DNA of 64,000 nt from the NCBI GenBank assembly GCA_029263395.1, contig JAJCXO010000206.1:690-64689 (forward strand), read 5' to 3'. Positions 36,022-39,566 of this stretch are shown one piece after another. Made by a program: the position numbers and the translations under genes. Positions within the stretch are counted from its first letter, which is position 1. Each line of letters begins with the position of its first letter. This DNA comes from Acidobacteriota bacterium (GTDB taxonomy: Bacteria; Acidobacteriota; Thermoanaerobaculia; Multivoradales; J023). Below the pieces are notes generated by a model. That model had not been told where the DNA came from. It saw only the letters and a program-made list of their open reading frames with translations, and did no database searches.

Positions 36022-37287
36022 TCAACCTCTTTCATCCAGGTTTTGTTCCAACAGAGCTCGCTCAGCTTGCAACCACTTCACAAGCTCCTCCTCGGTCGGC
36101 AGTTCCAACATGTATCGCGAGACAAAAAGAGAATCGGCCAACCCCGCGGTGGCATAGCGGACAACTTCGCTATCTTTGCCTGCACACAGCAAGATACCAA
36201 CCGGCGGGTTCTCGTCGGACCGGGTGGCGTGTTCAGCCAAGTAGTTGAGGTAGAAACTCATCTGCCCGGCGTGAGCGGGCTCGAAGTCCCCAACCTTGAG
36301 GTCAATGGCGACAAGCGAGCGCAGCCCACGATGGAAGAAAAGCAAATCGAGGTGGTGGTGGACATTGCCGACCGTGACGCGGAATTGCCGATCCACAAAA
36401 CAGAAATCGCGCCCAAGCTCTAAAAGAAACTCCTGAAGGTGATCTAGGAGAGCCTGTTCCAGATCCGCCTCACCGAAGCCGGCGGATGGCTTCAAACCCA
36501 AGAATTCGAGCACGTAAGGATCACGGACCTCAGTACTCGGTGTTGTGACCAGTCCACCGTTTCGGACGAGAGCTAAGACCGCATCACGGTCTTTCGATAG
36601 ACCAACTCGTTCATAGAGGAGACTGTTACGTTGGCGCTGGAACTCACGGACGGCCCAACCTTCCTTTAAGCAATGAAGTTCGTAGAAAGATCGTTTCAGG
36701 AGATCGTCAATACGGGAGAGCTCCAAGAGATGAGAAAATGAGAGTGTAGAGAAAAGTCGTTCGACCCATTCCGAATCCTGCCACTCAAGCTTCTTGGCTT
36801 TCTTGGCGCGCTGGGCCACAGAGGGGAACAATACTGCCTCGGTCGCTGACGATCCGCTATCAAGAATAGAAACGCCAGGCGTCTGGCGTTTCGACTCTTC
36901 TGGCCTGGAGGACGCCGACACCGGTCGCCTCAAGAGACCGAGACCAAAAACGCCAGACGCCTGGCGTTTTGGGAAATCAGAACCGAACCTGGCGGGAAGT
37001 GCATGCCGAATCTCGAGGCCAGGCCATGTCAAGGTCACCTGGCGGCAGTTCTTCAAACTGCTCACACCCAGTCCTTTGTACCCTCGCACGTCTAGCTCGG
37101 CGGCGAGCCTTGGGAAGAGGCGATCACCGTATGCAGCACGATCTTCACCCGTTTGTTCGTACTCGACAAGATAGGCACCAATGAGCCAATTACGCACCGA
37201 GAGCAGTCGTGCGACCGATCGCCCGGCCGCCTCCTGCAACGAATCGGTGATGGCACCTAGGTCAAAGAGAAGGGTCTCGAAGTTCAT
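36022..37287 (-). CDS. DUF1016/YhcG family PD-(D/E)xK nuclease-domain protein
   Basis: NWLIGAYLVEYEQ.G.DRA.YG, LSFSH, RDPYVLEFLGL, FLLELG.DFCFVDRQ, DLLFFHR, IDLK, GQMSFYLNY. Confidence 0.9.
   Translation of the reverse strand: MNFETLLFDLGAITDSLQEAAGRSVARLLSVRNWLIGAYLVEYEQTGEDRAAYGDRLFPRLAAELDVRGYKGLGVSSLKNCRQVTLTWPGLEIRHALPARFGSDFPKRQASGVFGLGLLRRPVSASSRPEESKRQTPGVSILDSGSSATEAVLFPSVAQRAKKAKKLEWQDSEWVERLFSTLSFSHLLELSRIDDLLKRSFYELHCLKEGWAVREFQRQRNSLLYERVGLSKDRDAVLALVRNGGLVTTPSTEVRDPYVLEFLGLKPSAGFGEADLEQALLDHLQEFLLELGRDFCFVDRQFRVTVGNVHHHLDLLFFHRGLRSLVAIDLKVGDFEPAHAGQMSFYLNYLAEHATRSDENPPVGILLCAGKDSEVVRYATAGLADSLFVSRYMLELPTEEELVKWLQAERALLEQNLDERG
36869..36970. repeat. Two intragenic 24-bp palindromes
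   Basis: GAAACGCCAG-GCGT-CTGGCGTTTC (36869-36892) and AAAACGCCAG-ACGC-CTGGCGTTTT (36947-36970). Confidence 0.9.
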
Positions 37288-37373
37288 GGGATGTCTCATC
37301 CGTCCAACAGAATCTTCGAGACGCTGCCTCACGTCGAAACTGACATAGCACTTTCCTGGGCTCGAGATTCAAG

Positions 37374-39566
37374 CTAGCCGTCCGCCCAGGACCGCAGCTC
37401 GTCGAGCAGCGCTCCTGAAACCCCTTCCGTGCTCCATTCGGCACAAAGATGGCCAACCGGCGCTTTGAGTGCCGGTAGCGGATTGCTACCCGGGGTCATC
37501 GCCGCCACTTCGCCACGCAGCCACTCGAGTAAGGATTCGAGTGACTCGAACGACCCGTCAGCCAAGGCCTGACGCAGACTCGGCACGGTGTGGGTTTCGA
37601 AGTTTTGTTTGCGGTCGAGATCGACGATGTCCGGCAGTAGCAGGGACGCTTCGGTGAGCGACAGCTCAATGCGCGCCAAGAGCTCATTGTAGATCCGACG
37701 GGCGATGGTGTCGGCCTTGACCCGGACCTCGCGCAATAGCTCTTCGCCACGGGCCCCGGAAGGCTCGCCGTGGGGCAACAATTGGCAGTAGAGCTTGAGC
37801 TTGGGCTCGGTACCCGACGGCCGGATGGTGATGATGAACGAATCGGTGAACAGCTGCAGCACGTTGCGCGGGGTTTTGTCGGTATCGCTGACGAAGGGGC
37901 CGAAGGCCTCTTGATCCCAATAGTCCACCATCTTGTGGACCGTCTGGCCACCCAGGACTGCCGGCCGGTTTTCCCGCAACGACGCCATGATGCGATCTTT
38001 TTTCAGCATGCCGGCAGCACCCGCCATCATGATCGAACGGTTGACGGTATCGAAGCCGCCGAGCTCTTCCAGGATGCCGGTGTAATAGTCGAGTAGCGTC
38101 TTACCTTCTTGCCGCAGGCGTTGGTAAAGCGCCGCCAGGTACATGCAAGCCGGAGTGGCATCTTTGTCGCGGATCGACGGCAACATCACAACACCGTGAC
38201 TCTCCTCGGCCGCCAAGACCAGGTCCTGATCGGAGCAGGTGACGTCTCCCCAGGGTTTGCCAGCTTGCAGCGTCTTGAGTACCGCCGCAACGTATTTGAA
38301 GCCGACCAGCAAGTCGTCGACCAACCAGGAGTCCCCCGCCTTTTCGACGATTTTGCCGAGAATTTTGGTGGTCACCAAGGTTTCGACCACCAACCCCTTA
38401 CGCCGCGGTCCGTGGGGATCGAGCATCAGGTAATAACACAGCACAGCAGCGATCTGATTGCCGTCGAAGTGGTACCAGGAGCCATCCGGCATCGCCATCT
38501 CGAGACCCACACGGTCAGCGTCGGGATCACTCGACAGCACGACGCCGGACCCCTGTTCGTCGGCGTAGCGACGAGCCGGCTCAGTGGCCTGGGGGACCTC
38601 CGGGTTGGGGGCCTTGAACGGGATCACCGAGAAGCTACCGTCGGGCCCTTCGGCGGGTGGCACAACCAGTGGGAAGCCAAGCTTCTCGAGCACGTCACCG
38701 ACGGTCGACAGGCCACAGCCACAGAGCGGCGTGTAGGTCACCGGGTAATCCGCCGTCGGAGTGAAAACGCCATCATAAAGCTCGATGTAGGCTTGAACGT
38801 AGTCGTCATGCAGGGCGGTCGGCACCGCTCGAATTTTGCCGGCGGCGAGCGCCTCGTCGAAGGGTGTCGAACGGATATCGGTCGCCCGCTCCATGGCGTC
38901 GACCAGGTGCTGGTCGTCAGGGGCGATCGGTTGCGAGCCGAAGCGATCGTAAACCTTGATGCCGTTGTCGTCCGGTGGATTGTGGGACGCCGACAGATTC
39001 ATGCCGCCGACGGCTCCCAGCTCGCTGATCAAGTAGGACAGCTCGGGAGTGGTCAACACCGCGTGCTCCGCTTCCGGCTCGGCGAAGTAGGCGACGATGC
39101 CGTTGCCAGCGTAAATCTCACAGGCCAGGCGACCGAGGGAGCGCGCTGAGACGCCAACCAGCGGGTGATCCTTGTCCAAGAAGCCATACCGTCCGGCGTT
39201 GTCGAGGAAAACCCGCACGTCGTTGGCCACCACCACGGTCAATTCGTCGCGGTCGGGGAAGGCCTCCCGCAGGTACTGACAGTGGCCCTGAACGGTCATG
39301 CCGACGGTGGTCGGATTCATCCGGTTGGAGCCATAACCCACCGGGCCACGGCGACCGCCGGTACCGAACGGCAACACTTGCCAGAAGGCGTCGAACAATA
39401 GATCGACGTGCTCTTCAGCCAGGTGTTGCTCGAGAATCTCCGGATAAGAATATGGGACATCGCCGGACAGCCACTGGCGCAAACGCTCGGCGGCACTGCG
39501 GCCGAGCTCGTCGTAGCGGTCAGCGAGAAGGTCACAGACCTTCTGGAGCGCTGCGGTATTAGACAT
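37374..39566 (-). CDS. Phosphoglucomutase/phosphomannomutase family protein
   Basis: FGTGGRRG, SASHNP, DPDADR, EESHG, RPSGTEPK. Confidence 0.92.
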   Translation of the reverse strand: MSNTAALQKVCDLLADRYDELGRSAAERLRQWLSGDVPYSYPEILEQHLAEEHVDLLFDAFWQVLPFGTGGRRGPVGYGSNRMNPTTVGMTVQGHCQYLREAFPDRDELTVVVANDVRVFLDNAGRYGFLDKDHPLVGVSARSLGRLACEIYAGNGIVAYFAEPEAEHAVLTTPELSYLISELGAVGGMNLSASHNPPDDNGIKVYDRFGSQPIAPDDQHLVDAMERATDIRSTPFDEALAAGKIRAVPTALHDDYVQAYIELYDGVFTPTADYPVTYTPLCGCGLSTVGDVLEKLGFPLVVPPAEGPDGSFSVIPFKAPNPEVPQATEPARRYADEQGSGVVLSSDPDADRVGLEMAMPDGSWYHFDGNQIAAVLCYYLMLDPHGPRRKGLVVETLVTTKILGKIVEKAGDSWLVDDLLVGFKYVAAVLKTLQAGKPWGDVTCSDQDLVLAAEESHGVVMLPSIRDKDATPACMYLAALYQRLRQEGKTLLDYYTGILEELGGFDTVNRSIMMAGAAGMLKKDRIMASLRENRPAVLGGQTVHKMVDYWDQEAFGPFVSDTDKTPRNVLQLFTDSFIITIRPSGTEPKLKLYCQLLPHGEPSGARGEELLREVRVKADTIARRIYNELLARIELSLTEASLLLPDIVDLDRKQNFETHTVPSLRQALADGSFESLESLLEWLRGEVAAMTPGSNPLPALKAPVGHLCAEWSTEGVSGALLDELRSWADG

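Follow-up and report, generated by a model that had tools for sequence, protein, structure and literature searches.

Palindromes at a fixed coding position in DUF1016/YhcG genes, and a mirror-image pair of units in an acidobacterial homologue

Introduction

Rickettsia palindromic elements lie in frame within genes, and their palindromic DNA is translated as part of the protein; they are dispersed mobile repeats of about 100-150 bp, carried by many unrelated genes of one genome. The palindromic, sequence-conserved parS site is located inside parB/spo0J, the gene of the protein that binds it, and in tandem centromere repeats each repeat holds an inverted repeat.

The available text of a study of yeast coding genes describes how template switching homogenises the arms of inverted repeats and inverts the short spacers between them, where perfect arms of >9 bp (10 nt or more) flank a spacer of 2-5 nt (PMC8604942), and the same process has been proposed to conserve inverted repeats in non-coding DNA of proteobacteria (PMC5941160). 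In the portions of these two papers that are available, flips recur, and exact inversion of a spacer alters one or two residues. In Nematomorpha mitochondria, palindromes are long (up to 284 bp), numerous and organelle-wide, and they encode conserved protein regions, according to the available part of PMC6649704.

Genes of the YhcG/DUF1016, RhuM, Bro-N and ORF6N families abound in prokaryotes and phages. In the accessible portions of three papers (PMC9881135, PMC4316617, PMC1189080), DUF1016/YhcG is described only as a predicted nuclease, with its fold and genomic context and with no reference to coding-sequence palindromes; in PADLOC, DUF1016 and RhuM proteins appear solely as defence candidates (PDC-S02, PDC-S05). 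A literature search found no published description of a coding palindrome in YhcG/DUF1016 genes, which is apparently undescribed in print.

The gene considered here lies in a window of 64,000 nucleotides from an Acidobacteriota bacterium (contig JAJCXO010000206.1, assembly GCA_029263395.1), and shares with the known family both domains (PF17761 and PF06250; PDC-S02), the PD-(D/E)XK residues and the setting of a lone low-GC guest gene. Its likeness to the template-switch cases, as the available text of PMC8604942 and PMC5941160 presents them, consists of arms of at least 10 nt, a 2-5-nt spacer and arms that are kept perfect; the events described there are lineage-specific and scattered over genes that are unrelated, whereas the present palindrome occupies a fixed spot in a whole family across many phyla, and adjacent copies, not alleles, display its two states. 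With the Nematomorpha genes, as far as the available part of PMC6649704 covers them, it has in common perfect inverted repeats inside functional coding genes and a compromise of protein sequence with DNA symmetry, but it measures only 22-29 nt, is limited to a single position and belongs to mobile genes of bacteria; in DUF1016 this position falls in a disordered linker. Unlike Rickettsia palindromic elements, the unit in the window is not dispersed in its own genome, and unlike parS, the DUF1016 palindromes drift in sequence while their symmetry stays, and any binding to them is putative.

A guest gene with mirror-image palindromes

The gene (Table 1) has an alternative upstream start, a GTG at 37332, which would give a protein of 436 aa. 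In this longer ORF, residues 28-112 match positions 5-88 of the 137-position DUF1016_N profile (PF17761; E 3.8e-21), the match being broken into two stretches by the linker insert, and the PD-(D/E)XK domain YhcG_C (PF06250) is matched at E 1.9e-50. D314, K331 and Q342 are invariant across 28 aligned sequences, and position 329 is D or E, which is the PD-(D/E)XK signature. Residues 3-417 span only positions 13-346 of the 351-position PADLOC profile, in agreement with the first-pass annotation of this DNA, which had called the protein longer than a typical DUF1016. The closest homologue has 66% protein identity. A sequence search of solved structures with the window protein gave 0 matches, and a Foldseek search of its predicted model against solved structures gave nothing at E <= 0.001; the top rows of the latter, from E 1.7e-03, were PD-(D/E)XK nucleases, and the N-terminal domain had no confident match. 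The gene is the single DUF1016 gene of the 10.7-Mb assembly and is a lone lower-GC guest (51-58% GC, against 60-65% in the flanks) between housekeeping genes, which are phosphoglucomutase-like (PGM-like), inositol-monophosphatase and MFS genes.

Table 1. Coordinates of the DUF1016/YhcG gene and of the elements of its linker in the window
Feature	Coordinates	Strand	Description
DUF1016/YhcG gene	36022..37287	-	421 aa; ATG at 37287
DUF1016/YhcG product			Predicted PD-(D/E)XK nuclease by domain; helical N-terminal domain; PADLOC candidate PDC-S02
U1	36985..37011	-	Peptide IRHALPARF; canonical family spot right after TWPGLE; decayed palindrome, 6/12 pairs
U2	36946..36969	-	Peptide KRQASGVF; perfect arms AAACGCCAG/CTGGCGTTT; 22-nt repeat proper at 36948-36969; core GCGT on coding strand, ACGC on plus strand; 11/12 pairs as a 24-mer
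U3	36907..36933	-	Peptide LRRPVSASS; between U2 and U4; quasi-palindrome, 8/12 pairs, 4-nt centre
U4	36868..36891	-	Peptide KRQTPGVS; arms as in U2; exact reverse complement of U2 over 36870-36891; core ACGC on coding strand, GCGT on plus strand; 11/12 pairs
Linker DNA, residues 98-152	36832..36996	-	Predicted disordered; in N-terminal domain; holds U2-U4 and the end of U1
Segment between unit centres	36881..36958	.	78 nt; with the units, a 22-nt inverted repeat with a 56-nt spacer

Two 22-nt units on the plus strand, AAACGCCAGGCGTCTGGCGTTT at 36870-36891 and AAACGCCAGACGCCTGGCGTTT at 36948-36969, start 78 nt apart and are reverse complements of each other at 22 of 22 nt, each consisting of 9-10-nt arms around a 4-nt core that is GCGT in one and ACGC in the other. 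The pattern has an expectation of 0.03 in the window, and two matches were found in 0 of 100 shuffles. The mirror-image pair with reverse-complement cores that had been noticed in the first-pass annotation is real, and on the coding (minus) strand its members read KRQASGVF and KRQTPGVS. The two further units, which had been called decayed, are recognisable mainly as peptides that align with the IRQTxSG units of homologues, and as DNA palindromes they are weak (6/12 and 8/12 pairs). Successive units are spaced by 14, 12 and 14 codons, which qualifies the spacing of about 13-14 codons given at first. A recent 78-nt tandem duplication is unsupported: Tandem Repeats Finder reported no repeat in the window, and the flanks beyond the 22 nt are unlike, only 21 of 56 positions being the same in either orientation.

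The exact 22-nt unit occurs only twice in the 10.7-Mb assembly, both times in the DUF1016/YhcG gene, and at two mismatches there are three further sites, one of which (C121) lies inside an unrelated gene. These counts bear on the view that the units arose when a small mobile element with a palindromic sequence, akin to REP, MITE or Rickettsia palindromic elements, was inserted in frame. Identity that stops at 22 nt between unrelated flanks would suit such an element, and motif-type palindromes are found outside DUF1016 genes at some loci, but the units are positioned where homologues have units of their own, and the genome holds neither another exact copy nor a second DUF1016 gene. Since the search to two mismatches returned the two copies and partial matches only, a dispersed REP or MITE repeat was rejected; for the window genome the insertion view is already largely refuted, and it is very improbable.

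Equally improbable is a programmed device in which regulated inversion or hairpin-templated rewriting would supply a population with peptide variants. As a pair the units do make up an inverted repeat of 22 nt with 56 nt between its arms, and when the 78-nt segment was inverted in silico it contained 0 stops and left the reading frame open; copy number and cores also vary among homologues. An open frame of 26 codons is, however, unremarkable at such GC content, the neighbours are housekeeping genes, and the peptide that would be varied lies in a linker predicted to be disordered (pLDDT < 50 over residues 98-152), not in a recognisable DNA-contacting element, contrary to the first-pass placement of it in a DNA-binding region. 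Logan contigs from three runs of one study hold window DNA and contain no variant, although contigs cannot show minor forms; run X1, which may be the source, is identical, and the contigs of run X2 (36443-36814 and 37006-37418, depth about 3) leave the palindrome region uncovered and are therefore uninformative. Nothing here shows the adaptive or programmed diversification that had been proposed for this gene, whereas the hairpin-templated switching proposed alongside it corresponds to a published mechanism of matching geometry, described in the available text of PMC8604942.

A palindrome throughout the family

Perfect hairpins (stem of at least 8 nt) were sought in 77 homologous DUF1016 genes, many of which are Dehalococcoidia paralogues, so that the counts are not independent; 86 of the 92 hairpins found fall in the same linker, and 59 of the 77 genes have at least one. 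After 100 synonymous codon shuffles, the linker held 3.6 +/- 1.9 hairpins (maximum 9), with a mean of 3.5 genes bearing one. None of the 77 genes lacks a unit of 9 or more pairs out of 12 at the spot after the third helix, and the palindrome at this fixed spot is a feature defined in this analysis rather than one taken from the literature. The canonical unit, ATT nnn CAG ACr s yGT CTG nnn AAT, encodes I-x-Q-T-x-S-G/A-E/K; hairpin stems measure 11-14 bp, and aligned homologues hold from one to five units each.

Changes in the two arms are coordinated. In a set of 108 units, admitted beforehand only if 9 or more of their 11 pairs matched, the share of cells that pair is 88.8%; shuffling lowers it to 75.0%, and 0 of 500 shuffles attain the observed value. 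Double-sided changes number 202 against 83.5 +/- 6.5; sliding the partner arm lowers pairing to 22-40%. Beyond position 13 from the centre pairing is at background (31/98 at position 14, 35/98 at position 15). Within the unit, Thr is encoded by ACA or ACG in 97 of 98 cases, compared with 49% gene-wide. The centre is divided between C (50 units) and G (45), corresponding to the two orientations; A or T occupies it in just three. Enrichment over codon-shuffled controls and arm covariation were the two comparisons that the first-pass annotation had suggested, and both support the view that DUF1016 genes carry the palindromes as a feature of their DNA.

The palindrome is also independent of reading frame. 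One lineage (L103 and L162-L166) bears it at the same spot in a different frame, where it encodes EFARQCLTN or EFDTHCVTN, and a 61%-identical relative has a 12/12 palindrome in the usual frame. Between two members of the lineage, L162 and L164, there are 159 differences in 1029 nt, but none of these is among the 25 nt of the palindrome (0 of 25). A 92%-identical gene bears quite a different palindrome, and divergence between related units (15.9%) is close to that of the genes as a whole (18.0%). Units within one gene show 85 both-arm changes that leave each unit still symmetric, against 159 uncompensated differences.

Related palindromes elsewhere

Fixed-spot coding palindromes were likewise found in 17 of 27 RhuM, 17 of 27 Bro-N and 17 of 29 ORF6N genes, with fewer than two in each family after shuffling. 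Each family has a palindrome at a spot of its own, and in Bro-N and ORF6N that spot is within the Pfam domain match, not in a linker. The statement in the first-pass annotation that segments of DUF1016, RhuM, Bro and ORF6N genes are often encoded by palindromes therefore holds in the genes sampled.

Some loci have motif-type palindromes outside DUF1016 genes too. Directly upstream of the DUF1016 gene of one locus (L082) is an array of 11.5 units of 78 nt, each of which holds a perfect palindrome with an arm matching that of the gene itself; the array resembles iteron or centromere arrays. In five genomes that were searched, copies of the palindrome were confined to DUF1016 genes and this array, except for two orphans; the orphan and array copies lie outside genes. 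A scan of viral contigs with the consensus pattern returned 41 rows at 37 loci, 40 of the rows having at least 10 of 12 pairs. Among four frame-0 ORFs from these contigs, Pfam assigned three to DUF1016 (L086, L092, L109) and left the fourth (L110) without a family; matches outside DUF1016 may be generic palindromes that fit the pattern, and they are leads, not evidence.

The array and the confinement of copies, the two orphans aside, recall a dyad-symmetric DNA site bound by the product of the gene, a putative in-gene operator or nucleation site. A guest gene that brings no intergenic DNA can carry a cis site only inside itself, and the arms would match because a homodimer reads both halves. 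Consistent with such a site, the symmetric positions (ATT, CAGAC and the C/G centre) are conserved even in the lineage with the other frame, and the two perfect units in the window have identical arms. Against it, arms differ among self-symmetric units of one gene (the 85 compensated changes), which a single half-site preference does not predict, and this, together with unit divergence near the gene average, argues against a simple fixed operator; the quite different palindrome of the 92%-identical gene points the same way, and the N-terminal domain found no confident match in sequence or fold searches of solved structures. Conservation among relatives and identity among copies, as in an operator or parS, are not seen in the family, although the window units are identical. 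A bound site of this kind is considered unlikely.

If the selected entity were instead an mRNA hairpin, acting as a ribosome pause between domains, an exonuclease barrier or a processing site, the DNA palindrome would simply follow from it. Covariation, independence of reading frame and stems of 11-14 bp speak for it, and the linker region of the window folds strongly as RNA, the minimum-free-energy structure pairing U2 with U4 (-92.6 kcal/mol, z -5.7). In the loci shown, roughly the first 150 codons contain the hairpins: they stand 40-60 aa past the point where the Bro-N and ORF6N domains start, and in the window protein they occupy residues 107-140. The mismatch spectrum, however, runs opposite to G-U tolerance: on the coding strand, G:T-type mismatches are rarer than A:C-type ones, by 9 to 31 in single-mismatch units and by 32 to 87 overall, although peptide preferences confound the comparison, with R/K at one pair and a synonymous CAA codon at another, and the spectrum is a lack of support for an mRNA hairpin, nothing more. 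Pairing also reaches in part the innermost position around a 1-nt centre, which is impossible in a hairpin, but this pair is weakly kept (57/98 paired, Fisher p = 0.05 with unbiased picking) and is too weak a test to decide against hairpins. No Rfam family scored above threshold, the sole match being a sub-threshold miRNA-precursor model over the long hairpin, and the orphan and array copies lie outside genes. A hairpin selected in the mRNA is decidedly unlikely.

Symmetry and a probable role of template switching

The explanation preferred here, with a probability of roughly 0.55, is that the palindrome is a nucleic-acid element held symmetric by template switching and retained at the linker spot, with the peptide as its passenger. 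What is kept is the symmetry of the nucleic acid, and the disordered linker would tolerate the peptide that comes with it. The arms would most likely be kept alike by template switching during replication, the growing strand using the opposite arm as its template; such an event would also invert the short spacer, giving the flipped cores, and could convert or multiply adjacent units. Presumably the element, as a hairpin or a dyad site, moves along with the mobile gene and is retained by selection. In the window, U2 and U4 would be extra copies of the family palindrome, one codon shorter (24 nt); the ancestral unit at the canonical spot would have decayed, while the derived pair of 24-nt units is perfect, each being inverted relative to the other.

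The analysis demonstrates DNA-level symmetry, covariation of the arms, independence from reading frame, a fixed position and a variable copy number; template switching as the process, and retention by selection, are what we infer. Both perfect window units, with 10-nt arms and a 4-nt spacer, fit the geometry given in the available text of PMC8604942, and the spacer of one is the exact reverse complement of that of the other on unchanged arms (22/22), although these are paralogous copies and not ancestral and descendant alleles. Because the only differences between the cores are two mirror-placed transitions, the flip may reflect a single inversion or, starting from a perfect ancestor, one transition in each copy, and inversion is not proven by it alone. 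In the Logan contigs, the only runs with this DNA, neither a template-switch event nor an inverted form of the 78-nt segment was observed. The evidence against this explanation includes the weakly kept innermost pair and the majority of one-sided over both-sided differences between related units (708 against 304). Moreover, a mutational process alone leaves unexplained the single fixed spot in nearly all members, the presence of palindromes in four families, the near-constant C/G centre and the commonness of ATT and CAGAC.

These gaps weigh on a further alternative, in which a functionless, self-perpetuating quasi-palindrome in a permissive linker is kept by the mutational bias of template switching only. 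All of the symmetry evidence is compatible with it; disorder is predicted for the linker, evolution of the unit proceeds at close to the gene-average rate, and the unit at the canonical spot has decayed in the window. Yet all 77 genes keep at least one well-paired unit, four families of similar lifestyle each have a palindrome at a fixed spot of their own, the spot in Bro-N and ORF6N is inside a Pfam domain match and not in a linker, and the near-absence of A/T at the centre is left without a cause. Lack of any function is quite unlikely.

Concluding remarks

It is conceivable, though doubtful, that these palindromes constitute an undescribed class of cis-acting elements placed at a fixed coding spot in at least four guest-gene families, with gene and site forming a transferable unit. 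The families in question, DUF1016/YhcG, RhuM, Bro-N and ORF6N, are mobile, defence-island genes. The site would serve the product of the gene or its mobility, for instance as a site for binding or nucleation or a signal of the recombination or hairpin type, and template switching would keep it symmetric, flip it and multiply it, thereby writing the peptide motifs that appear in the family profiles.

If a nucleic-acid element is indeed maintained within the reading frames of these families, it would provide the first concrete experimental handle on their proteins, in the form of binding or cutting of their own palindrome or control of expression by a hairpin, and it would account for the freedom with which copy number and cores vary in their linkers. 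It would offer a family-wide, long-term bacterial case of template switching shaping protein sequence, which in the available text of PMC8604942 is represented by scattered events in yeast genes. Motifs of the IRQTxSGE and LRSQIVTS type would be largely by-products of DNA symmetry, an origin that would matter for the reading of alignments, profile models and selection tests.

Paired Palindromic Units in the Window Gene

The two perfect palindromic units, which encode KRQASGVF and KRQTPGVS in the linker of a DUF1016/YhcG gene, are exact reverse complements of one another across 22 nt, with starts 78 nt apart and a 4-nt core between arms of 9-10 nt in each. The first-pass annotation had described two 24-bp palindromes at this spacing with reverse-complementary cores, and the description holds exactly over the 22 nt. 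The pair is real and far from chance (0.03 occurrences of the pattern expected in the window). Beyond the 22 nt the flanks share nothing, 21 of 56 positions being alike in either orientation; no tandem repeat was detected in the window, and no further exact copy of the 22-nt unit was found in the 10.7-Mb, 291-contig assembly. Two additional decayed units had also been proposed. One of these, IRHALPARF, does occupy the position of the first IRQTxSG unit of the aligned homologues; as DNA, both are weak, with 6 of 12 arm positions complementary in IRHALPARF and 8 of 12 in LRRPVSASS. Residues 98-152 of the protein have pLDDT values below 50 in an AlphaFold model, and the units are thus predicted to encode a disordered linker. 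Folding of the RNA from 36870 to 36969 pairs the two units with each other (23 bp), not locally, giving a 100-nt hairpin with a sub-threshold match to an Rfam miRNA-precursor model.

The gene product contains DUF1016_N (Pfam, E 3.8e-21) and the YhcG_C PD-(D/E)XK nuclease domain (Pfam, E 1.9e-50), and is assigned by PADLOC to PDC-S02 (E 1e-111); an upstream GTG at 37332 offers an alternative start, which would give 436 codons. It is the only DUF1016 gene of the assembly. Its GC content is 51-58%, versus 60-65% in the flanks, and its neighbors, all on the same strand, are a phosphoglucomutase-like gene on one side and inositol-monophosphatase and MFS genes on the other. In appearance it is an acquired guest gene lacking restriction-modification neighbors.

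Coordinates of the gene, its units and related palindromes (L, loci fetched from other genomes or contigs)
Feature	Coordinates	Strand	Description
DUF1016/YhcG gene	36022-37287	minus	ORF, 421 codons
Unit AAACGCCAGGCGTCTGGCGTTT	36870-36891	given on +	22 nt
Unit AAACGCCAGACGCCTGGCGTTT	36948-36969	given on +	22 nt
Palindrome in shifted frame	L103:1501-1525		DUF1016 gene
Tandem array	L082:455-1351		upstream of DUF1016 gene
Orphan copies	L258:1501-1525; L259:1501-1525		five-genome pattern search
Other copies outside DUF1016 genes	L112:1501-1525; L105:1501 and 2823; L100:1501 and 1524; L119:1501		

A Self-Symmetric DNA Element Is a Hallmark of the DUF1016 Family

Alignment of 28 homologues shows units patterned (I/K)RQTxSG(E/K/V)x in the same linker, from 1 to 5 per sequence. 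Eighty homologous loci from many phyla (35-58% identity) were taken from genome contigs, four of which were removed as truncated or frameshifted (L022, L065, L081, and L084), leaving 76 loci that together with the window gave 77 genes. Perfect hairpins, defined by a stem of at least 8 nt and a loop of at most 9 nt, were concentrated in the linker, which held 86 of 92, with at least one in 59 of the 77 genes; synonymous codon shuffling left 3.6 ± 1.9 linker hairpins (maximum 9 in 100 shuffles). Outside the linker such hairpins were depleted (6 observed versus 13.7 ± 3.6 shuffled).

The usual unit, ATT nnn CAG ACr s yGT CTG nnn AAT, spans 25-27 nt around a single central base. Complementarity was 71-97% at positions 2-12 from the center among 94 pre-selected units, in which all four pair types occurred at three arm positions; with unbiased picking, it was down to 31/98 and 35/98 at positions 14 and 15. 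Among 108 units pre-chosen at 9 or more of 11 pairs, a choice that inflates the percentage paired and leaves double-sided changes uninflated, 88.8% of cells were paired versus 75.0% after shuffling (a level reached by 0 of 500 shuffles), double-sided changes numbered 202 versus 83.5 ± 6.5, and slid arm registers paired at 22-40%. Both the palindrome enrichment over codon-shuffled controls and the arm covariation that the first-pass annotation had proposed as checks on DUF1016 genes are borne out by these counts.

The arms ATTCGCCAGAC, ATTCTCCAGAC, ATTTGCCAGAC, ATTTACGCGAC, and AAATGCTCGAC are read as IRQT..SGE, ILQT..SGE, ICQT..SGK, IYAT.SRK, and KCST.SSI, respectively, and ACA or ACG encodes the Thr of the unit in 97 of 98 cases versus 49% gene-wide. 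Peptide sequence tracks arm sequence: what appears as a peptide repeat is a self-symmetric DNA element in translation, and this element characterizes the family. DUF1016 gene L103 (likewise L104 and L118), found by scanning viral contigs with the consensus pattern, has the family palindrome at the usual spot before LSWS with the frame two bases off, so that it is read EFARQCLTN. Within this lineage, which is phage-borne, L164 and L162 share all 25 nt of the palindrome (0 differences) and differ at 159 of 1029 nt gene-wide. Differences of L165 and L166 from L162 lie almost all in one 270-nt patch around the palindrome, which contains a palindrome of another sequence (10 of 12 pairs) with the shifted frame retained; the patch separating L165 from L162 is a recombination patch. 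In L167 (61% identity), a further distinct palindrome pairs at 12 of 12 positions and is read in the usual frame. The occurrence of these palindromes across frames and sequences indicates that symmetry is maintained irrespective of the peptide.

Constraint on the Units and Origin of the Flipped Cores

Between related genes, units diverged by 15.9% versus 18.0% for the gene; over 369 non-independent comparisons, differences affected both arms 304 times and one arm 708 times. Unit divergence near the gene rate, together with both-arm differences, implies that the sequence drifts while its symmetry gets restored. The palindrome may be bound by the product of its own gene; however, comparison of units within one gene revealed 85 arm positions changed on both arms with symmetry intact (159 differences were uncompensated), unlike the output of one protein's half-site preference. 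A role as an mRNA hairpin may also be considered, but one tolerating G-U pairs finds no support in the arm mismatches, among which transitions predominate: coding-strand A:C-type mismatches outnumber G:T-type 31 to 9 in single-mismatch units and 87 to 32 overall (units of the 77 genes and of loci L162-L247), a comparison confounded by peptide preferences. The A:C excess of about three to one would be compatible with antisense-strand folding or with coding constraints.

Counts of the central base were 50 for C, 45 for G, and 3 for A or T. Because C and G represent two orientations of one palindrome, "flipped" centers are the rule in the family. For the symmetry, flips, and copy number of the palindrome, template switching is the mechanism that currently fits best, with a probability somewhat above even (about 0.55). 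In yeast coding genes, Abraham and Hazkani-Covo (PMC8604942) describe intermolecular template switching by which the arms of inverted repeats are homogenized and 2-5-nt spacers inverted, and the window units share the geometry of these cases (10-nt arms and a 4-nt spacer). In the model of Lavi and colleagues (PMC5941160), the same correction explains how perfect inverted repeats of proteobacteria are conserved over the long term. In the window, the ancestral unit would have decayed; the two derived units, each a codon short of the canonical length, would owe their identity in inverted orientation, whether kept or newly made, to template switching or to conversion between them. Alternatively, the flipped cores may have arisen by one transition per copy, at mirror positions of a perfect GCGC or ACGT ancestor core. 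No variants of the window units were present in contigs of the three sequencing runs holding this DNA, all from one study, and a programmed diversification device is not supported. In run X2, a second sample of this study, Logan contigs of depth ~3 end on either side of 36815-37005, probably because assembly broke at the inverted repeat.

Copies Outside DUF1016 Genes

In the flanks of the 76 loci (211,549 nt), motif-type palindromes occurred only at L082, from a Rhodothermales MAG, where an array of 11.5 tandem 78-nt units ends some 110 nt upstream of the start (1462) of a DUF1016 gene. Within every unit, a perfect 25-nt palindrome matching the type found in the gene itself is followed after 39 nt by a decayed one, the same 78/39 layout as in the window linker. 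Several reading frames are open in the array, which resembles an iteron or centromere array. A pattern search of five genomes found copies in DUF1016 genes (including paralogue L256), in the L082 array, and as two orphans: one intergenic, with the arms of that genome's own DUF1016 gene, and one 134 nt upstream of a gene that looks Bro-N-like in sequence. On viral contigs, one copy lies 66 nt upstream of a RhuM gene, others flank a SocA/Panacea-domain module on both sides, and two adjacent copies lie upstream of a large serine recombinase gene; such viral-contig copies may simply be chance fits of generic palindromes to the pattern. A motif-type palindrome also lies at the stop codon of an AbiEii gene.

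Coding Palindromes in RhuM, Bro-N, and ORF6N Families

Palindromes mentioned in the first-pass annotation for RhuM, Bro, and ORF6N genes are present in those sampled. Genes with a perfect hairpin (stem of at least 8 nt) at one fixed position were counted against synonymous shuffling, excluding loci of two unpublished genomes and one overlapping locus. Hairpins were found in 17 of 27 distinct RhuM genes (L123-L161; shuffled mean 1.54, maximum 4), 17 of 27 distinct Bro-N ORFs (L264-L293; 0.36, maximum 2), and 17 of 29 distinct ORF6N ORFs (L294-L323; 0.12, maximum 2), all shuffled means being below 2. One of these RhuM genes, L136 (G000:C68), belongs to the window's own genome. These palindromes covary and occupy one fixed position per family, and are unlike those of DUF1016, the core type in Bro-N and ORF6N being, for example, GTCACAAATTGTGAC. 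The ORF6N center, A or T and hence Ile or Phe in the peptide, again marks two orientations of one palindrome.

DUF1016 genes have been found in restriction-modification loci, and DUF1016 and RhuM annotations are enriched beside genes targeted by programmed inversions (Milman et al., PMC9881135); the parts of that article cited here make no mention of these palindromes, and full-text literature searching turned up no account of coding palindromes in the DUF1016, RhuM, Bro-N, or ORF6N families. The palindromes of Bro-N and ORF6N lie within the Pfam domain match, and their presence there, together with fixed positions in further families, makes a purely neutral explanation less likely. The RhuM, Bro-N, and ORF6N palindromes raise for consideration the reading that such palindromes may form a class of cis-acting elements built into coding sequence.
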